DNA of 64,000 bases, taken from contig OZ260666.1 in NCBI GenBank assembly GCA_965285935.1, positions 14,632,001 through 14,696,000 of the forward strand, written 5' to 3'. Within the stretch, counting starts at the first letter, position 1; every line of letters begins with the position of its first letter. The notes beneath the pieces are model-generated. The model was not told the origin of the DNA. It ran no database searches and saw only the letters and a list, made by a program, of their open reading frames with translations. A program made the translations under genes and the position numbers. Positions 4,401 to 38,834 of this stretch are shown in pieces. Origin of the DNA: Ophelia neglecta (Eukaryota).

Positions 4401-7400
4401 CTAATCGCCGTTTTCGTACCATTTATAGGTCATTCGAGGTCGGTCGTGTTTCGGCTGGGAAGTGGATGTGACCATACATCTCATCTTGAAACCTTCCTGC
4501 TCGATTCGTGCTTGAACTGGTTCTCCTGTACAATCCAAAATATTCTAATTGTGTACAATGTTTTCAAAATCAGTTAATAGACTTACAATTGTATAGATAT
4601 AGTGATGAACACTACAAGGTTTCTCAGTTGTCTAAATGCTATGTATAGACGACACTAAGGTATCGATCGCCAAATTATGTTCTAATGCTTAACGAATGAA
4701 AACATCATTGCATGACAATGTCTGCTAAAAAGTAAGACTACCTACCCCATACAGAAACAGTACCGTTTGTTACCACTTGTTCCGACTGTTTACATGTGTA
4801 CACTCCTGCGTCCTGTAAGGTGACGTTTATCAAAGTAAAACCAAATAGGTCAGCACTGCGTTCAACGAACCCCTCAAAGACTTTCTGTGTAACATTGACT
4901 GAATGTTGATAAGCCGTTTTATGTATTTTATATTTGGACAAGTGGAACATTTTCAAATTAAAATTGTCTTCGCATTTCAAAGGCCGAGCAGTGTCTATAT
5001 CTAGAAAGCTCCAGCGAAGCGTGGCGTTTCCTGTTGTATAACTGCAGTTTAAGCGTCCGTCTGAAAGCGGTGGTAATAATGAGACTACATACATTTGCGA
5101 CTATGTGTTTTTTTTCTGGAAGTGAGCGTAATATATATAATAAATTTATAATTATTTAGAAACAATTGTACCCACAAGTTGGCACCGGTTATGATATACA
5201 CAAAGGCGTTTAATAGTTAACATTGCTTTTTTTGTTCAAATGTATATTTATATACCTCCAGATTGGGTGGTCCCAGCCAAATCCGGTGGGCCCTGCGTGA
5301 AATGTTCAGCCGACAAAGTCGTTTCCATTGCTTGACCTACAAAATTTTATAAGCTATACTGATACATTGCACTCGTGCTTTTCAAAATGACGTCACCTGT
5401 AGCAAAACTTTATTTTGCGACTTAGATCGGCTGTGTAAATTTGAGCGACTAGTTGATGGTTGTCGCATTGACTAGCTCGTTTTAAATGTTAATATTACAA
5501 AGCTCTAAGTTTTTTTCGCGACATGGTGCCACTATGAAAAAAAAACTCGATGGCTCAATCTTGGTGCCTATATACTAACAGAGTGGATACCTGGAATATA
5601 AACAATTTTTAGTTAGCAAGGCTAATCTTTATGTCGCTCCGACTATAACGAGCTTTACTGAGGCACTGGTCGTAGTACAAAATGGTGAATTTGTCCACCT
5701 ATGTATGTAATGATTACAGATGAATCTATTCCCAATTCACTAATGAAAAAATGGCTTTTACTTGGCTTACTCTCTGTAACGGAGCCCGTTTCAGTGAATT
5801 TTTAACTTAAAGATTGTGAGTGGATACCCGACAGACACAGCTAAACATTAAACAATTCTAGTCCATTAAATTGACCACAAATCACCAGATACCTACAGCA
5901 TCAGGCAACAAACATAAGAATAATAATTTAAGATTGATATAACATGTGATGAGTAGTATTCAAACCATTTTCCATGACGCGAGCTATAACACTAAACAGT
6001 GGGTCAGTAGTAAAGTAGAGCAGCGATAAAATATGATCAAGGGGATCCTAAGATGAACAAAGCCGTTTCATTGTGGTGAGATTATGGATAAATCTTTTAT
6101 CTCTAAAACACATGACCAGAGCAGAAGGAAGTCCCGACATACTAAATTGTGAGTGGGTTTCATATCTCGTTAATATTGTAACCGAACATTATCAGTATGA
6201 ATCAGGTTCTCATGGCGCCATGTCATATGATGAGAGTAGGTTGCCTAAAGACACTGGCTTCTTTTGCTGTCTGGTTGCTGAAATAATGGCAATAAGACCG
6301 TACTACACCAGTCTGAAAGACAGTCATCGATTGTACGTTGACTAATCCATTGAGTTTTCAAATCTTAAGAAATGGTCCACGATCTGCAATTAACTCTGTT
6401 ATTTACCATATTTTTTGAACTTTTTCTGATGATTTCACTGTGATAGCTTCGGAAAAAGGATGATATATGGGCAAAATTTGCATTAGGATCAGTGGTTTTG
6501 ATGCAAAATGGGACAATCGTTATGCATACAGTTGTCAGAATAAGAAAATATATGACACAGTATAGAGCAATACAAAGTAAACATGGTGGATTATATGAAC
6601 ACGGATGGTATGAATACTAAACCAGGTTAACGAGAGATATGGCCCCGTACAGCATTAGAAATTGCAACACTAAATGTACGCTATCTCCTTCTATTTACAC
6701 GACCTAAATACGACAGGCCTGTCGGTTGACACGTGTTATTAAGCAGGATATACAACAACAGTGTATTTATTAAGTGGATTACCAGCTGTTCATGCTGGTG
6801 AGTGGGAGATTAGAGATACTTCAATATACTCCGCGCTTCATAGTTTATATTGGGATCAAATTAAGCGGACAAATCTAGGGCAATATATTTACTTTAAAAG
6901 AATTTCAGCACATATATTATGCACACGACAATTGCATATTTTGGACTTGACATAAATGGCAAAATGTGCCGCAAAACACCTAAACTGATAAAGAGATGGC
7001 ATTGGCAAGACGCACAATGATAATGTGCCTAGTGTACTTACTTTTCGAAAGAACATTTTCACGCAGCGTAAAGAGTATCACTCCGATGAATACCAGTCCA
7101 GCAAGCGTTGACGTGATGATGAACCCAAAGGTTTTCCCCCTTATCTGACATCCTGGCCATCTTCGCATTCTGTACTCTTCCGATTCTCTTGATGGCTCGC
7201 CTGCCTCATAATCTGTACAAGGTTGGGTAGCAATCTCCAAAATGTTCAGGGGTATGGTCTCCGTGCTCATATCCTTACCCTCGATTGTGGGCAAATTGTG
7301 TTCATCACGCGATGTCCTGGACTCTTTGATCACTGTCGCTGAGCGATCAGAGTTTGGTTTAGACCGTGTTAAATGCGGATGTTCCTGCTCTTCTGAATGA

Positions 7401-8293
7401 ATATACGTAGTCCCTTTGTTCGAACAGTCAGAGGAGTCGGCAAATCTTGGCATTCTGTTTCCTGGGTCTTGGTCCAGTTTTTTTGGTGTTAGTACTGAAA
7501 AATGTACCATAGGGGAACTTTCCAATGTATGTTTACATTGTGTCTGATATTTGGATCCTTCATCAGTAGTATTAGGACAAGTGGTCTTTGCCGCTACCGA
7601 TTTTACCGCTGTGCTTTGCTGCCCATTGGTGTCCATGGAACCATCTTCAGGACCCAAGGAGCCCTTATCTTGGTCCACACCCCTCAATGCCTCCTTTGAA
7701 TACTCTCGCCTTTCCGATGAATTGATGACAAGAGTATTAGAAACCAGTCCGTCATACCTTCCTATCAATCCACTCTTTTCGTTTGACGGGTTTTCTTTGG
7801 ATCGAAGGTAGTTCTTCGGATCGTCCGATGATATAAGCCCAAGTTCCGAGATGTCAGTGTTTTCTACTTCAGCGTCCTTTCGCCCTTTGCAAGGGTCATT
7901 GGTGGTTTTCACATAAGTTTGTTCTTGGCGATCAGTGTACGCTTCATGACTACTATGTACTACGGGTCTTGGGTTGCTTACTTTGCAGAGGAGAGCAGAT
8001 GATTCCTCTTCATTTGTACAATCCTCAGGCCAACTGTTTTCTACGGGAATTTTGTTGCCCACTGTTTGTAGAGTAGGCGTAATGTTTGTTTGAGGGAATG
8101 GACCATATACAACAGTAGGTCTTTCAGCGAATACATCATACTCCTGCTCGTTTAAGATGGTCGGTGACAGTTTATCTTCAACTCTGCCTTTCTTAATGCT
8201 CATGGGTACCACTTGGTCTTCTAAAGGTGTTGGGGTTCCCGGTCGTATGCGACCTACAAGGTCTGGCAAGGAAAAACGATTCACTTTATCCAT
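4401..8293 (-). CDS. Gene B1: putative type II TM Ig-superfamily protein, ~590 aa (cytoplasmic tail, TM, stalk, 1 Ig plus half Ig, stop)
   Basis: Exons complement(8293..7042, 5336..5256, 5060..4746, 4525..4401), all GT-AG phase 1, 1773 nt in total. Start MDKVNRF is inferred. Single TM FGFIITSTLAGLVFIGVILFTL is preceded by basic residues. Ig motif FTLINVTLQDAGVYTC. The last exon stops at WYENGD*. Confidence 0.75.
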
Positions 8294-9280
8294 TTTATCG
8301 AGGGATATTTTTCTGCATAAACTAAGAAGACGTTTTCTATCTGCATTAGCAGCACAACAATAACCCGTCTGACTCACCTACTGCTCATATCGAGATATAC
8401 AATGTCAAATAAGTATGATATCCTTAACCATTTTGGTAGCATTTATTGTGTCATTTTGGTAACTGATGTAAATATATTAATTCTTGGGTTTCTCCAAAGC
8501 GTCGGCGCAACTTTTGCGATAAGCCGACACATTTGGATATAAATTATATATTTTCACCAGGCCATCATACCAAGGTTGACTCAATCCCCCGCCATTCTAG
8601 AAGAGATAACAGAATGCGTAATTATTGATAATAATTGAGCAAAATATGTGTCAACATAATAGCTAATGGGCCACACAGAAACTAATGGCCAGGTCACTGC
8701 GAACGTATGGGGTCCGACATTTTTTCGAATAACATTCTGTTTAAGTTCTAGTCGGAGTCTAGCATAGTTAGTGTTGACCTATAAATGTTCTCGTAATCTC
8801 GCAATTAGGGAGGATAGTCAAGGATGTCGGAAAAGATAGTTGGGCATGTTCAAAGAAATGTTTACTGGAGCTCCCGAATGTGACTACTGGTCCCTTCTGG
8901 AAGCTTTGGAGTTGTATTCCAGGAAAAAGCGGTTTGTAGGGAAAGGCTTATGAATCATAATGAACATATTCACTTTTAGCCAAAGTCACTGTACGTCGAA
9001 CAGAGTAATTATCTTAGAACATAGTAATTATCTCTATCGCATTATGTAGCTATGTTAAGATTAATGGACGTTTGTAGGTAAGATCTGTCAGTATTATACC
9101 CCCTTAGTATTACGATAGTAAAGCTATATGAGATAATATCTATTCGTATGGTGAATAAATTGCAATAATAAGGAGCATCCAGGCACGCGTGGCGATGTCA
9201 TGTCGTTTGTAGCACAACACGCTCTTCTAGCACTTAAAAGTTCAGATAGTGTCAAAGTACACATGTGTCGCCTACTCAGT

Positions 9281-10280: not shown

Positions 10281-13200
10281 ATGATGGCTCGCATGCATTT
10301 AACCTATGCGTTGGTGCACTTGCACCTGCTTGTTACATTGATCAAAGGTTAGTTAATTTCCATAGTTTCGACTTAGTTACCACATATGTCCTGCACCTCA
10401 GCTTGTTGAGCTTCTTTTCTTCCTCGTCGCTTAACATTGATCAAAGGTTAGTTAATTTCCATAGTTTCGACTTAGTTACCAAATATGTCCTGCACCTCAG
10501 CTTGTTGAGCTTCTTTTCTTCCTCGTCGAAAACAATTTTTTCTGCAGCTAAGTAGTAAAGGATTAGGTAAATTATTAGGATTCAAAAGACCAACTGCGCT
10601 CCTTTCGTTGCAGATATGTTCACTTATGAATGTTCATTGTATGACTCATTTTTGTCGATTGGTGTAGCACAACTTGAAGATGGGCTTCCTATGATATATG
10701 TTTGTGACCTATTTTGTGGGTGTAATCCCCGAGGTACTAATAAAAGAAATGTACGCCTTCCCATCTCGAAATATTGACACAAGGGTTCCGCCTGGCCTTC
10801 TCTTTCGCGGCCATAATATATTTTTGACGAAAATCGATATTCTGCATAACCCTTTGATTCTTCATGCCAATATAAAAAAATAGGGTCATTTTATGTCTCT
10901 GTATAAGGTCTAGTTCAAAAGTTATGTGTTTAACTGATATCGCTATGTCTGCGGAGTGTCCACTCCCTTTGTTTCAAACAACTTTTGTACCTAATAATAC
11001 TTCACCTGTGGACTTATACTCAATTCTAAGTTTAGGTTTTAATGAATTTGTATTATATTGAAGCCGGGACACAAATCTCACGCACCATCCATGTTTGCGA
11101 AGGCGACACAATGAAGGTCAGCTTTGATTACCCGCATGGAAGGATGGGGGAAGCTACCTCGGTGCATGTAGAGCAGATAAAACCTATAAGCAGATACATT
11201 ATATATCAAGATTGGAATGAAAAGCCAACACCTGATGATGAGAGGGCGTGGATAGTTTGGAGAAAGACAAGCACTGGTGAACAAATCGAGGTAGGAATAA
11301 ACCACATAACTCTGTCTGATGAGGGGAGTTACGTTATTGATGTTTACTCGGATGGCTATGTGGAAACATATATTTTCTCAGTAAAGGTTTTGAACAACTC
11401 TGGTGAGTAGTTTTTTAATCTAGTTTCTGCTTTTATCTAGAATAAAATATAATAATTAATAACATCTCTCCCCACTTTCCCATATTTATATACATATATA
11501 AATACCATTCTACATCCATTTGGATGAATATTTTAATAAATATTTTTTCAATATTATTTTGTCAGTTAAATCAAATTCCAATTTTGTTGCACACTTTATC
11601 ACACTCAGTCTGCCCTGACCCTAAGAACTTGAGGCATCCGACAATCTCCTACAGACAGAAACCATCCTCTATAATACGTTTATACAACAAAACGTTGGAG
11701 CTCCGTGAACCAAGCAATGTTACACTGTTAGTGGACATACCTGCAGGGCATCCTCCTGTAATATGTACAATAGCCACAGATAAGTCTCAACATACTTGCA
11801 ATGGAAAGGTCAACATGACTTTCCTGTGTGAGGCTGAGCTCTTCTTGATATCGTCGGAACAGGAAATAAGAATAACCTTACATTTTATTGCTTACCGACC
11901 AATGACTACTAAGTTAGTTGCATTCGTCCTGGGTAAGGTTAATATTTGCATTAATAAATTTCTATATAAGATTATAAGGATTGATGGTACATTTTTACAT
12001 AGATAACGTGATAGACAAACGTGCCGCTTTAAACGACAAAGACTGGGGTGGAACTAATAACATAACACCATTGAAGATGCTACATGAAATCATATATTGT
12101 AATTAACAGAACATGATCTTCTGGAAGGCACGGAAATCAGCAAAATAAAAAATGAACATGATAAACCATCACCAGCAGTATATACTGCACGGGAGACCAA
12201 GGCAGCTCAAATGACCATTGATAGCGTTCTTGTGCTTGGGGGTTTTGTTTGCTTGTTCCTTGTCATCGCCCTTACGGCAGGAGCTCTGGTGGCACACCAT
12301 AGATGGAGAAAAGAGAGAGAACAAACCAGTGTGGATCGATTCGAACCTCCACGTACCGCGGCACAGGAAGAGGTACACCCCTGTCTCACCTTTCATACGA
12401 CATTCAAATGATACTTCTACTGTTCTTAGGAACATTGTAGTATTAATTCAACACCTTAGTATTAGTTGATAAATCATTTGCAATTCACTTCCACGATTGA
12501 ATTCATCGCCAAAAAAGCATCCTATGAACTATTTGATAGTGTTGTCCAAATAGTTTTTTTATTAAGGTTTAGTTTAGTAATGAATCATCAAAATCCATAT
12601 TTCTGTGTTGAAACATGCATAAGCATACATTCAATTCAGCCTGTCGTATCTCAGACAACGTTTTACCTTGTTTTCTTTTCACCACATGTTTACCTTCTGT
12701 ATTTGGTTAGATCGAAGAACGCCAGAATCTAGTCACTAATGACATGGACAAGCCAATCGCCTCAGCAGGTGATTGTTCCGTTTCTCAAATCATGGGTTCT
12801 GTAGACTTTAATACGGTACGAATCAGACTCCACAAGTTTCTGTTTATTCATTCTTCTACCATTAAAATAGTCTTCACGCCTGCTTTTATCATGAAATCTT
12901 AAAACTTGGTAATTATAATTTGTTCTCCTATTTCCGTCTTCTTCATGTCATAGATCTTGCCAAATGAAGGATTTTCTCCTCTACACATCGCAGCTATGGC
13001 CGGAACTGTTGATGAAGTAAAGCGCCACTGTAGGGATGGTGCTGACCTAAGTGAGCTTGACCCAATGAGTCGGACTGCACTGGCTGCAGCTGCTCGCAAT
13101 GGACATATATCTATTGTGCAATTTCTCATTGAGAAAGGCGCTGATGTCAATCACCCGGGCCCAGATGGTTTTCCCCCGGTAGCCAGCGCGGCAATTAAAG

Positions 13201-13928
13201 GTCAGACAGATGTAATCACTGTGCTATGTGAAAATGGCGCTGATCTCCGAATCATGGATAAAACTGGAGAAACTGCATTACACTACCCCTCCATTAAAGG
13301 AAATGTCAAGCTTATCAGCTTACTTTTGAGCAGAGGAGCTGATTTGCAAATATTGAATAAGCATGGACAAACACCACTGGGTTCTGCCTCAGAAGAGGGT
13401 CAGTTGTTAGCTGTAAAGTATCTCATTGATAAAGGTGCCGATATCAACAGGCCAGGCTGCAGTGGCAAACCCCCATTACACTGTGCCGCCAGGAACGGGC
13501 ATATAGCAGTCATACACTATCTTTTAGATAACGGCTGTGATATACACGCTTTAGATGACCTAAGTCAAGCCCCGCTTGGAGCCGCAGCTGGCAAAGGTTT
13601 AGTCGAAATAATGCGAAGTCTCATTGGTAAAGGAGCAAGTGTAAACCACCCTGGAATGTCTGGTCAACCTCCATTACACTGCGCAGCCGCGAAAGGACAA
13701 CTAGGGGCGATACACCTTCTCATAGAAAAAGGCGCAGATGTCCACATGAAAAATAAATTTGGCCAAACGGCAGTGGAAGTTGCTGCCAGTAAAGGTTTTA
13801 TTCCATGCGTGGAAGGTCTCATTGACAAAGGGGCTGCTGTTCCCCAGCCGGAAGTTGCTAGCCAGACAGACATACTAACCACTGTTGTGTTATTGGGGGA
13901 TTGTACTGCTGTTTGGAAGAATCATTAG
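10281..13928 (+). CDS. Gene A1: type I TM receptor, signal peptide - 2 Ig-like domains - TM - 9 ankyrin repeats, ~690 aa
   Basis: Exons 10281..10347 (MMARMHLTYALVHLHLLVTLIK), 11064..11402 (V-like, ITLSDEGSY), 11609..11932, 12110..12372 (TM VLVLGGFVCLFLVIALTAGALV), 12711..12815 (phase 0/0, possibly a cassette exon) and 12954..13928 (9 ANK). Phases are 1,1,1,0,0; 2073 nt; no internal stop. Confidence 0.85.
10335..10528. repeat. Local tandem duplication (~95-bp unit, 99-bp period) including the signal-peptide exon donor
   Basis: ACATTGATCAAAGGTTAGTT...TCCTCGTCG occurs at 10335-10429 and 10434-10528. There is a single unit at ~49918-50010 in copy 2. Confidence 0.9.
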
Positions 13929-18628: not shown

Positions 18629-21600
18629 TTAAGCCAAGGTAAATATGGTTTCATTTTTTTCGGTTATTGAAGAATTCGTAGATCCTTCATCGCTGACATC
18701 GGGTGAACCTAAGTTAAATATTTGTAAACAATGCTAAAAGTTCAAAAATATATTACATTGCTTTCCTAATATAGTACTTATCTTTGAAATATACATTTTT
18801 CGTGGATTTATGTGCCAAAATATCTAATGTATCTAATGAAGAATCGTGTGCCTCTTTAACCAGTTGGTCGTCCGGGTTATATCCGGTCTGATCAATATAC
18901 ACTAAACAATAATGTTTTGACAATAATATATGGATATACTTACAAATTATTTCAGGCAAAGCTGCTGTGCTGTTTGACACGTCACTCCTGACTCCAAACT
19001 CGTCTGCCAGAGACACCAGACACATCAGCGACTCGGTACAATCAATCACAGTGTCATCAATGTGTACGCTTGTTCCGTTTGTCTCTTGTGACTGCTCTCG
19101 GGTCTTGGAACCATTGGTGATGATCATCAGCGTAAGTTGTAATGGACTAGGCAGCTCCGAAACGCTACAATTAATCTTGTACGTTGTAGTTGGGTACACT
19201 GCTTGTACTTCAATAACATGTATATCAATCTTCGGCTTAGGAATATCTAAAATAAAAAGGCAATAATTATTGTTTCACTAAAAATGATAGGTTATTGTCA
19301 TACAAGGACAACAACTTGATTACAACAGAGTATGGCAGACTGATTCTGTATAGTTTATCATTGTTGAATGATCGGGCTGAAAAAGAATTGTAGTTATACC
19401 TACATGGTATTTCATTTGCTCAGAAAAAACACCTACTAATGAATACGTAACATGGGTAATCAGTATTTACCTTCTGGGGACATAAAGAATGCTTTACTTT
19501 GCCCAGACGAATACGGGGAATCAACTTCTGTGCCTTGACAGGAATAATGGTTATTGCCAGCTTCTTGCCAATATTCAAGTGGCGCGGGCAAATAGTACTA
19601 CTTACTCTCAGCCTCCACTTTCACATTGTTTCGGTACCACGAATACTGCATCCGAGGTCGCGCATTTTGTGGCTCGGATGTTGATATAACGTCACATCTC
19701 ATCTTGAAGCCTACTTGTGTTACCTTGGCTCGCTGAGGTTTCCCTAAAAAAAACAGAAAATATATGGCGGTAAATAAAATTAATCTTGTAGTCGGAAACC
19801 ACCTGCTTTAGGTTTAGTTTGAATATACAATGGATCAATGAAACAACTTTGTTTAGCAATTTTCGTTCATAAAATACAGCAATAAGCCAATTTGACAATT
19901 TACGTTTTAATATGGTAACGGATAACCAACTTTTATCAGTCACTAGCATCACAAATAATAATGAAATAATGTTTATAATAATAATAATATATCAATTTGT
20001 CACAGTATCAATTGATATATCCTACCCCATATGAACACGGTGCCGAGGGTCATAATCTGTCCTGCCTGTTTACATGCGTACTCCCCTGCGTCTTCCATGG
20101 TGACATTGAGCAAGGTGAAGCCAAAAATGGCGGCATCTTTATCAATAAACAATCTAAATATCTTCTTCGTTTCATTTCCGGGGTCGTCAATTGCAGAATT
20201 GTGCGTCGAGAAGTGAAGCAGATGGAACATTGTATGGTTAATATTGTCCTCACATTTCAACGGACGATTGGCGTCCGCGTCGAGGAAATCCCACATCAGG
20301 GTGGCATTGTCCCCGATCTTACTGCGACTGAAGTGGCTTTCTTAAAACAAACGAGTACGAAAATATCAGTATATTCTTGGAAAAACTTCAAAACTCGCAT
20401 TAGGCCAGCATGGAAAGACTAAACATTTGCTAATTATTTAAGCGAGCAAACCTAACAGGAAGTTGTTCATACTAAAAAGAAGTAGAGGACATTCGCATGA
20501 CCCTCTGACCGTCATAAATCACGACGATGATATTTTCAATTACCGAGCTTTAACCACATTAAAGGTCTTTTCCTCCAATTGGTATAGAAACTTACCCTTG
20601 ACCTCCACCAAGTAGGTAAAGTTACGCTCGTCTTGGCTGCACATGTAGCTCCCCGCATCTTGTTTTGTAACGTTCAACAAAACCATTGTAAACGAATCAT
20701 TGATTGGAACAACACTGTACCTCTCATCCATATCTACGGTGCCATAGTCAACGCGTGATTGGGAAACGTTGAAGATATTTTCGCCGATGTTATTGAAACA
20801 CACGCTGGTACGGCTTGGATCAGTAGAATCAATTTCCCAATGGATTGAAGCATTTCTGCCAACATATGCCACTAATATGTCAAAATCTGGTTTTTCTGAA
20901 AGGTCAATAAGATTAAATAATCAGAGTTTCGATATACATTTTAATCAAGCCATGCGCTACTGCATTTTACAATAAGATCAAATGTGCGCTTAAGGAGTAG
21001 CATAATAATCGACGTGAAACGACATGTAATATGCTCTACACATTTGTTTAAATTCCAGAAGCACGCTTTATATGACATTTCTTTTGAAAACATTATGTGT
21101 TTATATGTTCATTATAACATTAGGGGTAATTTCATTCGAGCTATTAAATTATTCAAGTTATGCTGCTATGACAAGAATTTCATTTGTTTGATAATTTGTT
21201 GCCAAGAAAGATGGCGGCCGGCGGATCTACAGCTTTGGCACTATTATCGGCTTTACACTAGAAATGATGATAAATTGAAAATGGGAAACGGCGAGATCCG
21301 TCCACATTGTGTGCACATGGGGACTTGTGTCAACTAGACCATCGTACATTTCACTCGATAAAACATTGTTGTTGTTAGAAGGCGAACTTATTATTTGAAA
21401 TTACTGTCAGGATGCCCACAGAAAAAAAGCTGACTAAATTAACAATATTAATAAACTGTCGGTTCGCTGAATTCTTCAGCCGTGAATATTTACACAAACA
21501 CGATAGTAATTATAATTAATGTGGTTTAATTCTGCTACTTTATTAAACTTATCAGCCAGACTTTCAACTTGACTCCGTTAGATCAGTTTGCTCCTCCCCC

Positions 21601-24600
21601 ACGTGCCGTTATTGCATTGTCTGAGGCACCCAATTTTTAATTTTTAAAGGATAGAAATTGCAATCTGTTAAGGAGCTATTATGTACTATTTATATCTTTC
21701 TATTTAATCTGCTAGCATCACAATTAATGCCCAGCGAGGTGAACACAGCGAATCGCCCGAGCCAATTGAGCGCATACGTGTAATAAGGGTAACGGCATGA
21801 AATGCATGCACTTTAAAAGTTAGAATTGTTCAAGTATTAAAGTGTTTTTTAACCTTACCTGTTACTTGACTGGAGAAGATTGTACTGTAACTGGCTGTTG
21901 TTAAAGGCTTTGCTGTGGTCATCGGATGTTTCCCTTTGGAATGAAACACACGTATTAGTGGCCGGAAGCACATCACGTTTAACCATTATAGTAGAGTAGT
22001 AAAGTATTGGACACTACTCTATTATTTGCTATTACAAAGACACCTAACATCTTTTATATTTCCAAGCATCTTGACTTGTTCCTTAGATTGCAGCAGCAAA
22101 CTTTAGCTTGCCAATTTTTGAGACATCGTTTTCAATATTTTGCCGACTAACTTCAGCTGCTCTTATGGACATTCTTTCTATGTCGCTTAAAATTGAAAAA
22201 AAAAAACATTGAGCGAAATGCGAAAGAGGGCTACGAACGGACGGGCCCTTTTATTCTAAACTCAATTCCTAACAAAAAGACGCATGAAAAATAATGGGTT
22301 TGAACGCCAACATTTCTCAGCCATGTTTCTCTGTTGATGTGCAAGGGCAATTTTCTGATAATGGTCGGACTAAATTTAACTTCGACTATTTATAAGCCCA
22401 AATAGAAATAATTGCATGAAACAATTATACACGGAATTATACTACTAAATAAAATAATCTCTGGTAATCTCTCTGACAACCAAAAAGGGAATAAAGTCAA
22501 TTTGATATACCGTATAAAGCAAAATAGCCATTAGGAGCATGCTGCAAATGGCAAATAGATAAAGTAAACATGTAACGTATTTTTAAACTTACAACTTAAC
22601 ACCCGAAATTCACGTAGTATCCAGGTCAATACTACCACAACTACCACCCCGACGAGCGCTGCCGTAGCGATGTATCTCAGTAATGTCCCGTTGACCCGAC
22701 AACCTCTCTTTCCACCTATGATTAGCTTTTCGTATTGGTTTGATGTCCCTTGCGCGTTTAATTCAATGCCTTCAATGCGATCGATAGGGGCTTCTTCCAA
22801 AGTTTCCAAACACACGATGTCAACGTCCATGTCTGCATCCTCGATACAGGAATAGATGTGCTCGTCCGCCGAGCTACGGCTGCCGCCATTTGTTGCCCGT
22901 ATGTTAGATTTCTCTCCACGACGGGTGGTCTTGGCTGAGAGGGGCTTTTGTGGTATTTCTGTATATGGATTTCTGTTTGCCCCGCTTTTCCTATGAGGCT
23001 TACCGGGAGATGGTTCAATTCTATTCCCGCGATCGGGAGCATGTAAATGGGGTTTAGGTGCATGCTCAGAATCTGTTGGAGCCAAATCAGCTATCTGGTG
23101 TACTAATGATTCCCTCATATCCATTCGATCAGAGACATGAGAGGGTGAACTCTTTTGAACGGAATTTTTATGGCCATTATTTTTGGATTTTCCCTGGCTT
23201 CCTAAGTGAATTTTGACATCTCTCGGGGATGAATCCCTGGATTTGAAATATTCTTCCTTTTTACCTAAATTTGAACAGTGTGGTTTGGGAGGAACGGCTG
23301 ATTCGATGGAAGCCGAATGTGTAGAAATTGCCCAGGGGCGAGTGTCCACGGTTGTAACGTCTCTTTCCGATCCAACTGCGGTACTTTCAAATATCTGGCT
23401 AGTCTTTTTGGGTTCCTTCAGGTCCTGTAATTCGCGGTATGTAGTGGGTGTTTCTAGGATTGATTCCTTTGGGGTAGCCGTTACTTTCCTTTCTGCAATG
23501 GGGGAATTTTCTTGACGCTGACTTGGTACAAAAGTCATCTGAGAGCGAGGCACCTTTGGGAAGTGGAAATAATCCGATCTGTCATCGAGGGCGTCATCAT
23601 TGGCTTTAATGTTACCTGTAGCCCACTCGTCCGTCGTCAGACTGGCCGTGTCGGAGGACCCAGTTGAAGAACCATCCTTCACAGTAGCTATTTCATTGTT
23701 ATGGCTGTATTGGTCCTTTTCAAGCTTTACCCCGGTGTCCTCATGATGGTGATCATTGATTGGAGGAGTATCTCTGGCTTTGAGATAATTCTTGTCCAAA
23801 TCTGAAGACTTTGGCCTGGGACAGCCGGTTGATTCGGGTGGTTTGATGGCGACATGTGCATTAGTTGAATGTTCACCATTGTCATTCACCAAAATCCTCT
23901 CACTACGAGGCACGTCGTTGAAATGAAAATAATCCTTTCGAGTGTCCAAAGCCGTACGTCCTTCTCCAGCGCTGCCAGAACTTTTCAGAACCTTTCTTGT
24001 TGGAATAGAACCCTTGAGACCTTGACCTTTTCCACTGATCGTGTGTTTTTCTATGATGGGTTCATTTTTTTTAGCACCACTGCCTGCTTGTTTATTCCTA
24101 ATTTCAATATTAGGCTTTTCTGTACCTGGCGCTTGTACCAGAGTCATCTGACTGCGGGGTACATGAGGGAAATGGAAATAATCAGACCTTTCATCTGGGA
24201 AGCCATCCTCGGGTCCAATGTTAGCCGCAGCGCCGCGGTCCGTCGTCAAGCTGCCCGTGTCTGAAGACCCAGTTGAGGAGCTATTGTCCACATCGGCTAT
24301 TACCAGGTTAGGGACGCTATATTCATAATTCGCCCCGGTGTTCTGTTGATGGTTAGAATTGCATCGTGGAGCTTCAAGGGATTTCCGAAGTTCGTCATGG
24401 TTGCCTATATCTGACGCCTGTCGCTCTGGAGAATTGGTTAAACCAGGAGTTGAGAGGACGGCAGGAGTCGGAGTTTCATCATTGACCATAATCATCTCGC
24501 TTCGAGGTACTTCCTTGAAGTGAAAATAGTCCTTACGAGTGTCCTCCATAGTTGCAAGTCCTTGGTTTGATATGTCCTCCGTTTCATCACCGATAGCCGC

Positions 24601-24837
24601 CATCCAGTCGTCTGTCGTCAGGCTAGCTGAGTCCGAGGACCCTGTGGTGGAGCCATCGACCCTGTCAATTTCATCCCCAGCGTTGCTATATCCTGTATTA
24701 ATTCGTAGATGATCCTGGCATTGTACGCTAGGCTCGGCTCCTGTTTGTTTTGGACTGGTTTCAAGGTCGTCGGTTTGGTGATTAGGACTCGAGTGGTCAC
24801 CTTTGCATGGCGACGCAGACTTTTCCAACGCATCCAT
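18629..24837 (-). CDS. Gene D1: putative type II TM protein with a ~720-aa repetitive tail and 4 Ig domains; in-frame TAG in Ig3 (truncated or null allele)
   Basis: Exons complement(24837..22593, 21933..21859, 20895..20596, 20340..20026, 19743..19471, 19246..18944, 18708..18629), all phase 1, 3591 nt. TM YIATAALVGVVVVVVLTWIL. Many N-x-S/T sequons C-terminal to the TM. TAG at 19600-19598. The terminal exon is the least certain. Confidence 0.78.
23530..24660 (-). repeat. Coding repeats in the D tail: 4x DxRxDYFHFxxVPRS and 3x STGSSDxxSLTTD
   Basis: Read directly from the translation. Higher-order period of about 200 aa (~600 nt). Confidence 0.9.
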
Positions 24838-30000: not shown

Positions 30001-31868
30001 ACCGTAAACGTTATCAATTAAGGAAATTGTAATCCCCTTCGTCATAATCATGACAAATCTCTTCCACTTTCTTTTTCATTTGCATATTATTTTCCTGAAC
30101 ACTGAAAATGAGGTAAATCTCCAAGTTTGAATCTATCTGGCCCATTGATATGGCATATTACAATGATAATCAATAATCAAGTATAATCAATTATTTAGCT
30201 CTAATACCGTCTAATAGAACCGTCAGTTGCAAGCATTAACATCACTCTTCAGTTCTCTAGCTAAGTGATCAATATATACATTTGGCTTTCCCAGGGTGAT
30301 AGGTCACATGCATCGGTTGTATACTGATATAGCAGTGCATGCTGTAGATTCAGGCTTTCAGTAATACAAAATGACACTGATTCATTTTAGAGATTAAACT
30401 TTATATTTCAGAGTGATGGAGATTTAATGTCCTGAATTTCGTTGGAATTCGATGACCTTTTATATCGGTCTTATTTTTCAAGACTAATCCATTTGTATGC
30501 TCACATTTAAGACAAAGATTTAACTACGATACCCTCTCCCAGGAAATACCTTAAACTGTCTTACGTATCTGTAGACCATTATTAGCGCACCTATTCAGGT
30601 TGTGAAAACCCTATCACGAAGGACGGGCACCTTGGACCATTGTATTGACCAAACACTACAAGTTAAGCGTGTCCATTATTATGTCATCTAAAAAGAAACC
30701 ACATGTATAACTGTACTATTGATTTGGCATTGACCGATGTGTCATAGAAAAAAAGATCTGTCACTCACTTGTGGGTATTAAGTTTAAGAAGGAATTGCTT
30801 AAATATATATCAAGAGGATTGATTGGCAGAAAATATAAGCAAGGGGTCTAATGATGGCCTTTTATTTGATCTTAACGTCAATATCTGATTCCAATTGGGG
30901 AGATTAATCATCCGATGCTGAAATGATGTACCGAATGCATATTGTTAAATCACATCCCTAATTTTCCTTATTGACTTGTGTCATAGTGTCTTATATATAA
31001 TAATCTCTTCGGTAAAAAAAAATTATCTATTTCCCTTAAAAATACTTCCAAATGTTTAATTTCTGTAAAATTAAGATTACACTGTGACACCCATTGTCCT
31101 GCTCAGTACAGTAAAAAACAATTCTTAATTACATTTAACGATAGCAATATAAATTAATTTTCTATTTCCTTTCCAAAATAATGTGCCAAAGCCAATATAC
31201 GAAAATAAACTGCCCTCGTGTAAAGCCTGGCCTAAAGATTTTTTTAAAGGAATTAAGCAAACAGAACTGTCATCCCTCATTTATTTTGTTTAAAAAGGGT
31301 CTGGAAACACCATTTTATATTAAAATCAGATTATAAAATTGATGTGCCTCACTGTCTTGAGAATATTTGGGAAAAAAATTCTGGTTCATCGATTTGGCGC
31401 TTCCGAGTTGGCAATTCGGGTTTACTTGTTCATCCTCTACTACATTTTTATGTACACAACTACGTCATAAGGAAACGTTTAAATTAAAAGTCATAGTAAG
31501 CAGTTGGCAGGTTTGCTTTTGCTTACATTTTCTCGTGTGTGTACCACCTGTACGAATCACTAATTTCTGATCTTCCTAATCAATAATATTGCATTTTCAG
31601 ATAATCAACGTGTCATATTTCTCATATAGTAATATTTTTCATCAGTTGTACGACGTAGCTCTGAACGCTCGGCAACATATAAAATAATGCCTGTTTTCCT
31701 TTATATAACAAATTACAGATTCCTTGAGAGAATTAAATTGGCAGAGGTGACGTTAGCAAGCTAGCAAACATGAAACTTATATCATGTGTATTATCTATGG
31801 TGTTGGTTCATTCCCACACAGGCGTTGCAATTGACGGTAAGAATATGCTCCTTCTTGAGATTTCTGAA

Positions 31869-32076
31869 NNNNNNNNNNNNNNNNNNNNNNNNNNNNNNNN
31901 NNNNNNNNNNNNNNNNNNNNNNNNNNNNNNNNNNNNNNNNNNNNNNNNNNNNNNNNNNNNNNNNNNNNNNNNNNNNNNNNNNNNNNNNNNNNNNNNNNNN
32001 NNNNNNNNNNNNNNNNNNNNNNNNNNNNNNNNNNNNNNNNNNNNNNNNNNNNNNNNNNNNNNNNNNNNNNNNNNNN
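31869..32076. other. Assembly gap (208 N) in intron 1 of gene C
   Basis: Run of N. Confidence 1.
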
Positions 32077-32577
32077 AAACCTTCTCATTTCATCAAGGTT
32101 TTTGCACGCAACTTGACCATTTGATCTCCATTATTTATCAACACTTGTTTTGTTTACAGTAAGACGCCCTGGCCCTGTGTCTGTCTGTGAGGGTGATGAA
32201 GCCAAATTCCAGGTGGATTTCCATCCAGGAATGATGGACACATTAAAGTCGGTACACGTTGAACAGGTCTCGCCGAAGGCAAGATACATCCTATATAAGA
32301 ACCGGAACGAAAAAACACACTTGGATGAGCCAAGGGCCTGGCTTGCCTGGAAAAAGATAAGCAATGGAGATCAACTTGAATTCCTCATTCGAAACATAAC
32401 TGTATTGGACGATGGTATCTATGAAATATATGTATATTGGGGAACAAAAGTGATGGAAATAAGTGCCATAGTGAATGTGTTTGGTTAGTCCTCGAGAACA
32501 ATTACAAAACACTTTATTGAGTTACAATAATTAATCAATCTAACGATCCATCTTTATATATATATATATATATCATC

Positions 32578-32703
32578 AATTCTTTTGTCACTTTCAACGA
32601 ATTGTATAATTGGGGTAATTATATATATATATATATATATAATTACATAATTACCCCAATAATTTCCCCAATTATACCATTAGTTGAAAGTGACAAAAGA
32701 ATT
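32578..32703. repeat. AT-centred inverted repeat (hairpin or cruciform)
   Basis: AATTCTTTTGTCACTTTCAAC ... GTTGAAAGTGACAAAAGAATT are exact reverse complements. Inner arms TATAATTGGGG / CCCCAATTATA surround an (AT)n run. Confidence 0.85.
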
Positions 32704-34763
32704 AATGAAACCAAAGAATCATAATGTAATACATTGAGTCACACTCACACTATATTTGTTTTCCTCATGTTTTAAAATCTGGCATGGAATCGGTGTAAAT
32801 TCGAAGTTTAGTCAATTTATTAAAGAATGTTAAGGCGCTATATGTTATCGCACAGATAGTATTCACCTATTGCTGGATATGGATTTTGTACTGATACTAT
32901 TAGAAATGCTATAACAATGCTTGGAATGGATCTAACATGTATTAGACACTAGGCGAGACCGGCGTACCAGCAATGAGAAGGGAATACATGTATCTCAGTA
33001 CGTTTTGAGAAGAGGGAAAATTACGATGATTGAGACAACCATAATTTCAGTGATAAATGGGTCAAACTACCTTTTCTTCTAGAAAGATTATATTTTAGTT
33101 TATATATATTAAATTGTTTGGCTAACCTTAACTACCATATGCGAATTTGCTCAACGTCACATGTTAGTAACCGGATTGTGGTTAAAATGAAGATATTTTA
33201 CATCGTTGGGGTTGGTTGAGGATGGATATTGAATGTCTAATAATGCCCGGCACCATTGGTTCCACTTTTCTATTATTTCATAATATTAAACATAAAAAGG
33301 CATCTTCGATCTGTGCCTACTGCTTGTATAGGCGAATGATATAATTATCTTCTGGACATGGTTTGCGACACAATAGACCTAAAATAGGACATATTAAGTA
33401 TATACCATGCATGTCAATGAAATGTCTCCATTGAATACACCGAATTCATGTTATGTAATCAATTCGTTATCCATGTTTTGTAGGCTGCCCTGACAGAGAA
33501 TGGCTGATGTACCCTCCAATCTCCTATGGATAAAACACATCCGCATTCACCAGTGTATACAATGACGGCCTGGAAGTCAAACCAGGTAATGTGATCCTCC
33601 GGGTGGATATACCGGCAGCCAATCCGCCAGTCTTCTGCACCGTGTCCACCGTGTCAACAGCACAGCCTCACTGCATGGGACTGCCAGACATAACTTGTAC
33701 CTTGTCCAATGGCAAGGCACATTATCACTGCAGAGGAACAACACATATGACATATATGTGTGAAGTGGATCTTCAGTTTGATGTTGCCAGGGAGGACCAG
33801 ACTATAAACGTGAGCCTGTCATTTATCGCATATGGAGCAAAGACAACCCAACTACGTGTCCACGTCAAAGGTTAGTTAGGTCGTATAAGAATCGTGTGGC
33901 GTTTTATAGCCCTAGGCTGAAAGAATAACTATGAAAAGGAAACTCTCTGACATTTGTATTTTGCACTATTAATAGTCAAACTATTGGAAGTGTGTATGCC
34001 ATATTCATATTGCAACTTGTATTCACGTTACTTAGCATACCTAGTGTTCTTTTCATACAGGCACATTCATAAGATCATTTAATGCTTTTCGTTCATCAGA
34101 GGAAATTATAGAAGAAGTGACGACAACCATCGTATCTGGACAAGAGCATCCCAAAAGCACAAAATCAACGCCGGCAACTGTAATTACCATTGTTGTTTTA
34201 GTTACACTGGCAATAATTGGTGTTTTAGCCGCGGTGTCATACTATCAGCTAAGACAACAAAAAGAGGAAAACACCAACCGAACAGATGTAGAGGTAACAA
34301 CATACATTATGATGGCTTGCTTTTGATCAAATTTAAAAGTCCTAATAAACAAAGAGTTCGACTAATGTTTCATTTCAAATATGATATAATAAATAAAGGA
34401 AAGAAATAAAGTAAAAAGAAACGGGAGTTGATACCCGGCAGAGAAAGCAAAATTATTAATTCATTAAATCGGTAGAAAATCAGCGGGAACCGACTGCAAT
34501 TACAAATCAATCTAGGGCCTACACTTTGAGTACTGCCATATTTGAACTTTTTATAAGTGTATTTTAAGACAGGAAATGACCTACCTGGTGCCATGTGCCG
34601 ATAAACGCTAAAAATATAAATCCTACCAATAGAAACACTCACATTATACGAACAAAATAGTTGCATTATTTCGACATGGGCATTATGATGCCTACGGCAA
34701 ACGTTTTCAACAGATAATGATTCGTTTTAAGGACCACAATAATGTACTTTTGTTCTCTCATAG

Positions 34764-35404
34764 GGTAAAGCAACCGAGCCACTTGTTCCTTCTGTGCAAA
34801 GTACAATTAGGACCCCAACGGAATTTTTTTTTCTTCTCTGCACATTGCGGCTTTTAATGGTGATTTGGCTGAGAAATGAGAAATGGCCTTGATTTACAAC
34901 TGTTAGACAAAACGGGTCGGACGCCATTGGTTGCTTATGCTCGAGAAGGTTATATGAGTATTGTCCGGTATCTCATTGAAAAGGGTGCTGATGTCAATTA
35001 CTCAGGTATTGGAGGATACCCATCCTTATCTGGGGAAGCCATTAAGGGCCACTTGGATGTAATAGAAATATTATGCGAAAATGGCGCTGATCTACAAACA
35101 CCAAATAGTAATGGAGAAACAGCTTTACACTACCCTGCCATGAAAGGAGATATAAAGACAATGCGGGTTCTTTTGAATGGAAGAAATGCTGATATTCAAA
35201 TTCTGAATGAACGCGTACAAACGCCGCTTGTTACTTCTTAAGTTGCTGTCACACTTTAGCGTATAGAGCTAACGTGTGTCTGGCGTATTGAAAAATTGGG
35301 TGTACGTTCGCGTAAGTTGCCATTCGTTCGTGACACGTTTGACATAAGGTCTTTGGCAGCGGTTAAATCGCTCAGTGACCACGGTGCCAATGTGGACCGG
35401 CCAG
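34764..35404 (+). pseudogene. Decayed duplicate of the gene C ankyrin exon (cassette 1)
   Basis: The acceptor and ~130 bp of upstream intron are homologous to those before 36943. Begins GKATEPLVPSV, frameshifts in a T run and stops at TGA 34890-34892. ANK homology continues in ORF 34876-35241, is interrupted by an ~105-bp insert, and resumes at 35348-35404. Confidence 0.85.
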
Positions 35405-36103
35405 TATTTGCTATATCGCCTTCAGTCTGGTATGACGGACGATACTGCGTATAAAACTTGTTACTGCGTAATATGCGCTGGTGTCACACGTGCTGCTGCT
35501 GTGAAATGTTATCTTCAAGTTAACACAACATTCAGACAGCTAACTTGCTATAATGGTTAGATTTTGTTGGTTATTTGGAACCGGACACAACAATAATGTT
35601 TTATGCCTTAGCCCCCAGGGGCAAGGTAGCTGTTCAGTGGGCAGGCTTTACTTGGCACCCGCCTTCCCTTGCGCTGATTAACAAATACAATGTAATGCTC
35701 CTTCTAATGCAGTGATTAACTGTAGTCTCCAACCATCCCCACTCCTTGGACTTGATTGGTTGGTTGTTTGTGGTTTTTCGTGACTTTCAACACTTATATG
35801 GCCATATCGCCACGTTGCCTACTTGAGGCAGTGGGCTCATTGCCCTCTTCGTGGATTTATTTCAGTAAATACCAGACCAAAGATGTTGCTAGAATGATGC
35901 GTTCCACTTTAAGAATTAAGCGACATTCGATTCCAAACTGTTAGAATTACAAAACAATCAAATGCCTTAACACTTTGCATTGTCACATTTTAAGCTTTCT
36001 TTTATCAGCTTCATGCCAATGAAAATAATAATGTTGTACGAAGCATATTCTCATTCTTTTCGTTTCAAGTCGCACACTAATATTTTCTTACGTTTTCTCC
36101 TAG

Positions 36104-36610
36104 ACAGAGCAAAACATCCCTCTTACTCATCCAAAAGAACCTATTCTGCCGAAGCCGGAGGAGGATTTTTTTCATCTGAAAACTGGGGCTCCGAACGCTG
36201 ATTTAGATGAGGTAAAGCTTTTGTGTCAAAACGGTTTTGTAAACAAAAATTAGAGAAATCGGTTGAACTATAGTCGGTGCCTATGAGCGCACAGGTTATA
36301 TTTCATTGAAAAGGACGGTGATGTCAATTACGCAGTTCCCGGAGGTTACGCCGCCTTATCTGGGGCTGTTTTCAAAGGACACTTGGATTATAGATCTATT
36401 GTGTAAACATCGCGCCGAACTACAAACAGCTTGTAAAGATGGATAAACCATTTTATGCTAACCTGCAGTGAACAGAGCCGTAGAGGCAGTTCGGGTTCTT
36501 TTGAATGAAGGCGCTGATAATTTAACTCTAAATACAAACGCTGCTTGCCATGATTTTCGAAAAGATTATGTATTGACTGTTAAATGGCCCATTACCAAAG
36601 GTGCCAATTG
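36104..36610 (+). pseudogene. Older decayed duplicate of the ankyrin exon (cassette 2)
   Basis: A phase-0 acceptor gives TEQNIPLTHPKEPILPKPEEDFFHLKTGAPNADLDEVKLLCQNG...*, which aligns to the start of the intact exon. Downstream DNA resembles ANK repeats 2-5 with indels. Confidence 0.7.
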
Positions 36611-37908
36611 TAGACATGCCATACTAGAAAGGCATAATCAGAATCAGAAATATCTCTATTTTGGCCATTCACGAATATATACATACAATAAACGATCACA
36701 ATAAGCTTTACAGACATGAAATGAACAGGGTGACCCTCACTAGGGCTGCTGTGCTGCCGCTAGCGTGGGGGCCACCTTCTATATAATAGAAAGTCATTAT
36801 CCAACCAAAGGAAACACTCATATTATACTAACAAAGTGGCTGCATTATTTCGAAATGAGCATGATAATGACTACTGTAAACGTTTCAAACAGATAATGTT
36901 TCGTTTCGAGCACCATAATAATGTATTTTTCTTCGCTCATAGGGTGCAGCAACCGAGCCACTTGTTCCTTCTGTGGACAAAACTATTAGGACCCCAGCGC
37001 AAGATTTTTCTCCTCTTCACATTGCGGCTTTGAACAATGATTTGAATGAGGTAAAGCGTCTGTGTAAAAATGGCGCTGAACTAGAAGTATTAGACAAAAT
37101 GGGTCGTACGCCACTCGGTGCCTCTGCTCGCGAAGGTCATACGTGTATTGTCCGGTATCTAATTGAGGAAGGTGCTGATGTCAATTACTCAGGATCCGGA
37201 GGTTACCCAGCCTTATCTGGGGCGGCCATCAAGGGCCACTTGGATATAATAGAACTATTGTGCGAAAATGGCGCTGAGCTTCACACAACAGATAGTAATG
37301 GAGAAACAGCTTTACACTACCCAGCCATGAAAGGAGACATAGAGACAATGCGGGTGCTGTTGAGTAGAAATGCTGATATTCAAATTCTAAATGAACACGG
37401 ACAAACGCCGCTTGCTATTGCTTCAGAAAAAGGTCATTTGCCAGCTGTTAAATGGCTAATTCGCCAAGGTGCCAATGTAGACCGGCCAGGCAGTGAAGGC
37501 AAGCCCCCGTTACACTGCGCGGCTGGGAAAGGACGCACGGAAGTTATAGAATGTCTCTTGGATCACGACGCAAACATACATACAGTAAATAAATTCGGCC
37601 AATCACCGCTTGGATCTGCTGCTGAGAAAGAGCAAATAGAGACAATGATAAACCTCATCCAGAGAGGCGCCAGTGTTAACCATCCGGAAGAAAACGGCCA
37701 ACCTCCTCTCCACTGTGCAGTATATAAGGAGGAACAGCTGAAGTCACTGCGGCTTCTCTTGGACAAAGGTGCAAACGAGGTCATGAGAAATAAAAACGGT
37801 CTTACTCCAGTTGATGTCGCCCGTAAAAATGGACATTTGCAAGCAGTTGAATGGTTAATCGACAAAGGTGCTTCTGAAAAACAGAGCAAGGCAAGCACTC
37901 AGTGTTAA

Positions 37909-38834
37909 AGCAAAGAGGAATCGAATGAGTCCAGCCCAGCGCTAGTATCCATTTCTTTGAATGAAGCAGCCTCAGCCGGAAATTTAGATGAATTGAAGCG
38001 TCTAATCAACCATGTGCTTATCCACTTCCACTTGATGAAATATGTCGGACCACACTTAATGATTCTGCTCGCAATGGACATACCAGTATTGTCAAGTTCC
38101 TCATCGAGAAGGGCGCTGATGTCAATTACATAGGATCTGATGGATTTCCTCCGTTACCTGGAGCTGCTATAAAAGGGCAACTGGATGTAATAAAATTACT
38201 TTGTAGAAATAGAGCGAGTCTACGAAACATTGACAAAAGTGGCCAAACTCCATTACATTATCCAGCACTTAAAGGAAACATAGAGGCAATGCAGACTTTT
38301 CTGGACGAAGGTGCTGACAAAGAAATACTAAATAAACAGAGAGAAACGCCACTTGGCGTCGCATCTGGTAAAGGTCAACTATTGTTTGTAAAAGATTTGG
38401 TTGAGAAGGGCGCAGATGTCAATTTCCCAGGATGTAAAGGCAAACCGTCCTTAAACTGCGCAGCCAAAAATGGTCATTTAGATGTTATACGGTATCTTTT
38501 AGATAAAGGTGGTAATATAAAGGAGGTAAATGAATTTGGTCAAACTCCACTGGGTTCTGCTGCAGGAAAAGGACAAATAGGAGCAATGCGAGTTTTTCTT
38601 GATAAAGGCGCCGACCTAAATCATCCTGGAAGTTCTGGTCAACCCCCACTTCACTGCGCAGCAAAGGAAGGGCAGCTAGACGCTATACATCTGCTTCTGG
38701 ACAAAGGCGCCGATGTGACCATAAAAAATAAATTGGGACTTACTTCAGTTGAAGTAGCTGCAAATGAAGGTCACTCAGAATGCGTTGAATGTGTCGTTGA
38801 CAAAGGAAGTACCATTCCTCACGCTGCCAACTAG
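37909..38834 (+). pseudogene. Second 9-repeat ankyrin array directly after the gene C stop codon
   Basis: In frame after TAA 37906-37908 it reads SKEESNESSPALVSISLNEAASAGNLDELKRLINH. A 1-nt deletion follows near 38014, then a frame open from 37992 to 38834 holds the remaining repeats. Confidence 0.8.

Follow-up and report, generated by a model that had tools for sequence, protein, structure and literature searches.

The 64,000-nucleotide stretch of Ophelia neglecta DNA analysed here (the window: NCBI GenBank assembly GCA_965285935.1, contig OZ260666.1, positions 14,632,001 to 14,696,000 of the forward strand) carries a minus-strand gene whose large first coding exon encodes two kinds of repeated short motif and, head to head with it on the plus strand, a gene for an immunoglobulin (Ig)-type receptor with an ankyrin exon. 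An earlier note on this DNA had pointed to four tyrosine motifs and three Ser/Thr clusters kept within a higher-order repeat of about 200 residues, and both are present as quoted in a single open frame of 790 codons (22531-24903, minus strand). The Ser/Thr clusters, referred to here as motif A, and the tyrosine motifs, motif B, follow each other along the chain in the order A-B-A-B-B-A-B. The seven copies, all read in the open frame, and two further tyrosine motifs recognised by family comparison lie as follows:

24592..24651, minus strand: motif A copy 1 (Ser/Thr cluster, SLTTDDW)
24484..24543, minus strand: motif B copy 1 (DTRKDYFHFKEVPRSEMIMV)
24220..24279, minus strand: motif A copy 2, Trp lost
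24136..24195, minus strand: motif B copy 2
23887..23946, minus strand: motif B copy 3
23611..23670, minus strand: motif A copy 3
23527..23586, minus strand: motif B copy 4
22837..22863, minus strand: family-wide Tyr motif EHxYSxIxD
22723..22740, minus strand: family-wide Tyr motif NxYEKL, followed by a basic juxtamembrane stretch

Selection on the motifs and their spread through the genome

The motif copies form part of an internal repeat of about 600 nucleotides (about 200 amino acids), in which 23526-23947 and 24135-24544 share 66% nucleotide identity. Aligned codon by codon, the two repeat units are 85% identical in amino acids over their 54 motif codons versus 30% over their 90 spacer codons, and the differences per site at codon positions 1 and 2 amount to 0.07 in motif and 0.44 in spacer. 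Third codon positions have diverged equally in both (0.41 and 0.38, respectively). Since the motif codons have been kept while third positions changed to the same extent in motif and spacer, A and B are under purifying selection as protein motifs, and recent duplication alone does not explain their conservation. Pairwise comparison of the four B copies yields 40 synonymous and 20 non-synonymous codon differences. The contrast between conserved motifs and diverged spacers described in the earlier note extends to the paralogs: over 19 of them, column conservation is 0.79 for A, 0.64 for B, 0.80 for HxYSxI and 0.84 for NxYEKL versus 0.39 for the rest. The last two motifs lie about 40 residues apart in the window chain.

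The window covers about 1.6 units of a tandem repeat of about 39.5 kb. The array at C9:14.29-14.96 Mb contains twelve close copies of the motif gene; four strict B matches occur in ten of them and three in the other two. In the wider genome, 66 search matches were reduced to 40 diverged loci, to which 40 loci from a census of the Ig exon were added, and a profile recovers 87 first-exon frames falling into 34 groups at less than 60% identity. A typical family chain has one A followed by one B, then proline-rich stretches (RxCPxAP, RPLPPxP or PPIPPR), EHxYSxIxD, NxYExL and a helix. Across the family, A reads SSxSSDTxS[LM]TTD[DE]WAA[IVL]TxEP[ED]Y and B reads D-x-R-x-[DG]-Y-[FL]-H-F-x-x-V-P-x-x-[KQ]-M-I. 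Both motifs are thus where they had been placed but longer than they had been written, B reaching to xxxMIxV and A normally to DWAAIxxEPxY. The multivalency proposed for them is real in the window subfamily, with its three A and four B copies, and is not general, most paralogs having one of each.

Strict DNA patterns match genome-wide 89 times for B (control, 1) and 76 times for A (control, 0). Inspection of 13 pattern loci identified six non-coding chance matches, one of which is repeated by four further matches, and four distant genes or fragments with a single membrane pass, in which B is present and A is not. In these four distant relatives the Tyr of B is always kept, and two of them retain DY(F/L)HFxxVP without the Arg. 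The four (L233, L236, L237 and L238) include two, L237 and L238, with Tyr motifs of the NIY[DE]EIP type. The A-B module has been duplicated separately at C7:4.47 Mb (L239, L240), where the duplication spans 900 bases and a stop codon lies between the two units. Some family members lack both A and B; among them is paralog B of the window, which scores zero with the motif profiles, in agreement with the earlier note. Outside this genome, the profile matched four proteins among 1.84 billion, of which three are plausible unnamed fragments, one (P0003) with a B variant in which Asn replaces Tyr, and the fourth (P0004) is a low-complexity false match. A word-based homologue search with the motif region found none, and none of nine pattern matches in a metagenome scan was confirmed. 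Family members seem to cluster towards the contig ends of C1, C2, C5, C7, C8, C9 and C12, as in the regions 0.2-6.3 Mb and 112-121 Mb of C2, a contig of 122 Mb.

Predicted topology and Ig-like exons of the motif gene

The exons of the motif gene, whose joins are read from DNA only, are listed here with the corresponding exon of paralog B and that of the next tandem copy:

22593..24837, minus strand: large first coding exon, with a low-complexity N-terminal region of about 720 residues, the transmembrane helix and a phase-1 splice donor (start codon and donor read from the sequence)
22615..22683, minus strand: single transmembrane helix, predicted signal anchor with the N-terminus inside
21859..21933, minus strand: predicted Ser/Thr-rich stalk exon (sequence)
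20596..20895, minus strand: Ig-like exon 1, V-set-like (Pfam E 1.4e-4, below cut-off)
20026..20340, minus strand: Ig-like exon 2 (Pfam E 1.9e-3, below cut-off), the basis of the family census
19471..19743, minus strand: Ig-like exon 3, with an in-frame TAG at 19598-19600 (weak Ig_2 match on a sister copy)
18944..19246, minus strand: fourth extracellular exon, Ig-like by eye, without Pfam support (sequence)
18629..18708, minus strand: predicted last coding exon with stop, without a second membrane helix (read from the sequence)
6983..8377, minus strand: first exon of paralog B, placed in the same family by the profile (E 5.4e-19) and devoid of motifs A and B
62226..64000, minus strand: motif exon of the next tandem copy, truncated where the window stops, with three B motifs inside the window

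The family chains have one helix and no N-terminal signal peptide, with positive charge on the N-terminal side of the helix and glycosylation sequons on the C-terminal side. In 32 diverged family chains, the 15 residues preceding the helix carry a net charge of +3.2 and the 8 following it one of -0.1. Sequons are at chance level on the N-terminal side (0.95 versus 0.94 per 100 residues), and on the other side the three Ig exons that were counted have 4-5 of them per 100 residues. From this charge step and sequon distribution, the chain is predicted to be a type II membrane protein with its motifs in the cytoplasm, an unseen upstream coding exon being possible. The region that had been called a tail is the N-terminal part of this type II protein and not a C-terminal tail. 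The proposal of short linear docking motifs in a predicted cytoplasmic, disorder-like region agrees both with the selection on the motifs and with the topology, and the two outcomes named beforehand as counting against it, motifs conserved no better than spacers and an extracellular location, were not found, the former neither in the internal repeats nor in the paralogs and the latter not in the predicted topology.

With regard to the ectodomain, V-set and ig matches of exons 1-3 fall below the Pfam cut-offs and exon 4 gives none; one exon of paralog B passes the ig cut-off. The two-part module of A followed by B, which is under selection and has been multiplied in the window gene, thus belongs to a predicted type II receptor, probably of the Ig family. 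The TAG in Ig-like exon 3 is private to this copy (one of twelve array copies), and a possible rescuing donor, read from the sequence, adjoins it. Three DNA contig sets of one sample carry only the non-stop allele of this codon, which can neither confirm nor exclude the stop of this copy. Two other array copies (L200, L205) have lost the end of Ig-like exon 3 and the start of exon 4.

Head-to-head linkage and varied partner tails

Upstream of the motif gene and of its paralog B lie two plus-strand receptor genes:

31770..37908, plus strand: partner gene C, head to head with the motif gene (Pfam and sequence)
31770-31836, plus strand: gene C signal peptide exon
32160-32483, plus strand: gene C IgV exon
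33484-33870, plus strand: gene C second ectodomain exon, with an in-frame TAA at 33531-33533
~34100-34294, plus strand: gene C membrane exon
36944-37908, plus strand: gene C ankyrin exon
11036..13928, plus strand: gene A, head-to-head partner of paralog B, with IgV, second ectodomain, membrane helix, linker exon and ankyrin exon (Pfam and sequence)

The codon that reads TAA in gene C is open in the other nine copies, one of which has a different stop nearby. Gene C also contains two broken extra copies of the ankyrin exon (34765-35242 and 36105-36621) before the intact one, and a further ankyrin frame (37992-38831) after its stop.

The IgV exon of the neighbouring plus-strand gene has 110 relatives in the genome. 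On the type II side, 150 of 305 candidate exons were scored, and 18 of these 150 rows were dropped (13 fragments in one cluster, 4 that were the other Ig exon of counted genes and 1 duplicate). Thirteen half-exon pieces of the type II Ig exon are clustered at C2:118.26-118.32 Mb. A type II exon lies within 50 kb upstream of 93 of the 110 type I exons, and in all 93 cases it is on the opposite strand in divergent orientation, versus a mean of 30 and a maximum of 45 in strand shuffles. Outside the array the pairing holds for 75 of 89 type I exons and, counted from the type II side, 90 of 132 exons have a partner. In three pairs on C5 the start codons are about 0.9-1.0 kb apart, the partner starting with a signal peptide. 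The sequence distances of the two chains are correlated (r 0.60, n=51, 0 of 2000 permutations; in the non-redundant set r 0.26, n=24, 7 of 2000), in a comparison where some type II rows are the first instead of the second Ig exon. Two different genes are thus linked head to head, as in plant NLR pairs; the pair does not consist of two NLRs, the type II chain being without a nucleotide-binding domain. A literature search, mainly open-access, found neither head-to-head type II/type I Ig pairs in animals nor these motifs, and annelid genome papers may mention the family. The paired-receptor system, which is larger than the window gene, is apparently undescribed.

Strict linkage and correlated divergence are also what would be expected if the type II chain were the ligand or counter-receptor of a type I chain on another cell, in a form of self- or allorecognition where linkage keeps matched specificities together and the motifs serve reverse signalling. 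Recognition pairs are tightly linked in self-incompatibility loci, and both chains have full Ig-type ectodomains and signalling tails of their own. Against this, the two genes diverge over a short distance, which suggests a single promoter and expression in the same cell, no diversifying signal is seen in the exon tested, and some 90 pairs on many contigs are unlike a single recognition locus. We regard this alternative as unlikely, yet as the most serious of those weighed.

Partner genes share the signal peptide, the IgV exon, the second ectodomain exon and a membrane exon open to its donor, and varied domains lie downstream of the latter. The 33 tails found comprise 23 of NACHT type, 4 TRAF-MATH, 4 ankyrin, 1 TIR-like frame with ankyrin and 1 URGCP-type GTPase. 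NACHT assignments stem from PF05729 matches above the cut-off; among 27 NACHT-related frames, 17 show a Walker A pattern and the others are fragments or remnants, and the 23 NACHT-type tails include 5 remnants without Walker A as well as two IgV exons that share one NACHT. The remnant partners (L098, L099, L109, L112 and L123) have only the winged-helix/HD2 end of NACHT and are possibly decoy or regulatory chains. One partner has a CARD ahead of its NACHT. Short frames resembling leucine-rich repeats were seen by eye after 2 of 11 genes, and an exon scan for them was not above its antisense control. A search with the partner NACHT exon among longer proteins returned one distant fish NLR and no Ig-NACHT fusion, a weak negative.

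Among the other tails, a TRAF-type MATH exon follows directly after partner receptors at L054:7010-7612, L066:477-1079 and L126:4514-5116, a possible receptor-TRAF fusion. At L121:1221-4325 (C8:12.76 Mb) a frame of 1035 codons, which encodes URGCP and GBP-like GTPase domains, comes after the membrane exon of a partner receptor. A frame that is TIR-like by eye only precedes ankyrin repeats at L065:8949-9572 and L191:1927-2301, and C7 and C8 carry six further relatives. For the tail at C9:11.77 Mb, labelled TIR-like by eye only, neither Pfam nor PDB gave a TIR match, and its structural model (pLDDT 39) is unusable. Ig exons, membrane helix and downstream domain stand on the same strand and in that order, NACHT included, and the combination of phase-0 donor, short linker exon and phase-1 domain exon is top-scoring in 8 of 17 genes, covering all tail types. 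This phase-compatible layout fits exon shuffling and isn't proof of splicing.

The variety of tails bears directly on the partner that the earlier note had favoured for the motifs, the ankyrin groove of the neighbouring receptor. Extended peptides are bound by ankyrin grooves, and the amplified chain with three A and four B is indeed paired with an ankyrin-tailed gene. Nevertheless, the tails identified opposite 16 motif-B chains (after removal of one distant mis-pairing) are 11 NACHT, 3 MATH, 1 TIR-like with ankyrin and 1 ankyrin, so that 14 of the 16 partners are non-ankyrin; the ankyrin gene A is paired with the motif-less paralog B; and close relatives of the window ankyrin exons are confined to the array (25 of 28 matches), whereas B occurs genome-wide. 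Binding of B to this groove is therefore very improbable. Motif B is thus older and more widespread than the ankyrin tail and, since it is kept across NACHT, MATH and ankyrin pairings, it probably binds something common to all pairs.

Candidate ligands and a possible paired immune receptor

Among 23 motif-B segments scanned against Pfam, none matched a family at E up to 10. Profiles of the two motifs, run against PDB sequences, returned chance-level matches only, and AlphaFold modelled the B alignment as an extended chain that has a single helical turn and forms no mini-domain. As the earlier note had stated for ITIM and ITAM, the window chain has no immunoreceptor tyrosine-based inhibitory, switch or activation motif (ITIM, ITSM or ITAM, taken here as [SIVL]xYxx[IVL], TxYxx[VI] and two Yxx[LI] 6-12 residues apart); ITIM and ITSM patterns occur in 5 and 1 of 32 chains, at or below shuffles, and an ITAM pattern in 1 of 32. 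Class I SH3-ligand sites (30 versus 6.3 in shuffles of the 32 chains) and Yxx[LIV] sites (77 versus 45.6) exceed shuffles, in tests that treat related chains as independent and so overstate significance.

Several candidates were dropped. For CRIB, the 23 B segments gave no Pfam PBD match, and the second of its two conserved His residues is present in 1 of 22 instances. PP1 RVxF, tankyrase, TRAF2/6, RHIM and JAK box1 had no match to the window motifs, the wrong spacing or the wrong distance from the membrane. Read as a Pellino/FHA site (TxxD), A is not enriched over shuffles, and the available part of PMC11884936 contained no TxxD-type consensus.

The Tyr of B, which follows Asp or Gly and is kept in 20 of 22 instances, favours a phosphotyrosine site, and A resembles an acidophilic-kinase cluster. 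Phospho-regulation of the motifs is plausible; Phe, His and Asn variants at this Tyr also mean that it may be a phospho-independent aromatic anchor. Among the ligand options, an SH2-type reader of D-pY-F/L-x-F is the most likely one, while in itself still doubtful; a literature search for an SH2 consensus of this kind returned no paper.

A second option is that B is a docking site bringing a JNK-type MAP kinase to the receptor. A strict JIP1-type pattern gives 6 sites in 4 of the 32 chains versus 0.7 in shuffles, and P0003 has RPDNLHF. The R-x-x-x-F/L-x-F of B also fits the loose consensus of JIP1-class D-motifs (basic residue, spacer, hydrophobic-x-hydrophobic) as given in the consulted portion of PMC4670726, from which B differs in being longer and in its ability to lose the Arg. 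Besides the two distant relatives without Arg, docking of this kind is opposed by the absence of the strict pattern from every window copy, by a generic pattern not above shuffles (152 sites; shuffle maximum 155) and by the conserved VPxxxMI extension, which it leaves unexplained; we consider it improbable. A complex prediction with annelid-type JNK (P0011) and a 39-residue B peptide (score 0.01, mark 0.34) is evidence neither way. A JNK exon of this genome has 95% identity to Arenicola and 93% to Capitella JNK, its closest named matches, which makes an annelid host likely.

The motifs might instead govern trafficking or turnover. B would then be a sorting signal of the YxxF type and A an Atg8-binding site of the LC3-interacting region (LIR) type under phospho-regulation, sending the receptor pair to endosomes or autophagosomes. 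B contains Y-x-x-F, the sorting consensus, and acidic residues precede the W-x-x-[IVL] of A in 17 of 21 seeded instances, all from paralogs; a LIR-type pattern is found in 20 of 32 chains versus 8.4 in shuffles. Acidic residues with a W-x-x-hydrophobic layout are described for LIRs in the part of PMC7297954 that was available, a form that family A copies fit. However, the W-x-x-I/L/V core has been lost from each of the three A copies of the window chain, in which the Ser/Thr cluster persists, and B is conserved over 18-20 residues, far longer than a sorting signal and far from the membrane. This alternative is rather improbable, although slightly less so than kinase docking.

The reading we prefer, to which we give an even chance, is that the two genes encode a co-transcribed two-chain surface immune receptor, made of a type II docking scaffold and a type I chain with a swappable output domain. 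A shared promoter would drive both head-to-head genes, and the Ig ectodomains of the two chains would assemble and bind ligand. Clustering would allow a Src-type kinase, held by the proline-rich stretches that resemble SH3 ligands, to phosphorylate the tail tyrosines, and motif B would then recruit one common cytoplasmic protein. Motif A may act as a casein-kinase-type phospho-cluster tuning recruitment or turnover. Which output follows would depend on the tail of the partner chain, a NACHT in the majority of pairs with an identified tail. The window subfamily would have raised avidity by passing from one A and one B to three A and four B.

Several observations weigh against this two-chain receptor, among them the overstated significance of the shuffle tests. 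A partner was undetected for 42 of 132 type II exons and 17 of 110 type I exons, and several type II chains without A and B still keep partners. Co-duplication by itself would produce both the linkage and the correlated distances, neither of which is evidence of contact between the proteins. A same-strand downstream domain was found for 33 of the 75 partner IgV exons whose DNA was examined, and the exon joins, including that from membrane exon to NACHT exon, come from crude splice scoring, with the full chain in the 8 of 17 genes. The Tyr of B is not invariant, Asn taking its place in the outside homologue. Among recent paralogs, amino-acid change in the second Ig exon is not in excess of that in the tail (ratio of non-synonymous to synonymous differences, pN/pS, 0.56 versus 0.51). 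Finally, the window pair carries stop codons in both genes, TAG in the motif gene and TAA in partner C; both members may be decaying together, in a single case where assembly error is possible.

On a broader and more tentative view, the roughly 90 head-to-head pairs could represent, in this annelid lineage, plug-and-play surface immune receptors with two new docking motifs, whose engines (NACHT, TRAF-MATH, TIR-like, ankyrin and large GTPase) would have been swapped by exon shuffling. They would be an animal counterpart, at the membrane, of plant paired NLRs, in which an outside ligand directly drives NACHT oligomerisation under control of the motifs on the partner. If this is true, a large and strictly paired family with exchangeable outputs would let an invertebrate diversify recognition and response without gene rearrangement. 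The two new, strongly selected linear motifs occur in natural variants with 0, 1, 2 or 4 copies, which suit a comparison of avidity.

Vertebrate type II receptors and transmembrane adaptors (CD94/NKG2, Dectin-1, LAT, PAG/Cbp) have Tyr motifs in a disordered cytoplasmic region together with proline stretches resembling SH3 ligands. The family chains are similar in having N-terminal, cytoplasmic Tyr motifs in type II chains with proline stretches, and they differ in having an Ig-like ectodomain instead of a C-type lectin, ITIM, ITSM and ITAM patterns not above chance, and motifs A and B for which no counterpart was found. Most NLRs sense inside the cell, and in the literature searched a membrane-bound Ig-NACHT receptor was found in only one sea cucumber. 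This protein, AjNLRC4, has Ig outside, a transmembrane part and NACHT inside, and is reported to bind microbes and drive phagocytosis (PMC8699970; PMC13133943, both in part). The same Ig-transmembrane-NACHT layout is predicted for most partner chains here. AjNLRC4 differs in having two transmembrane segments, and the portions of text examined mention no linked type II partner; here, moreover, the tail is swapped among NACHT, MATH, ankyrin and GTPase. In rice, Pik-1/Pik-2 and RGA4/RGA5 are head-to-head linked NLRs that form complexes with divided labour and variable added domains, according to the available part of PMC10338059. Both systems closely link two different immune genes head to head. 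The plant pairs are two cytoplasmic NB-ARC proteins, whereas here two predicted membrane Ig proteins of opposite topology, only one of them with a nucleotide-binding domain, would make up the complex.

Two intronless open frames were also observed elsewhere in the genome: a diverged Atg8-like one at L172:1396-1839 (C1:52.18 Mb), and one with two tandem Rab-like GTPase domains at L185:228-1445 (C12:21.10 Mb).

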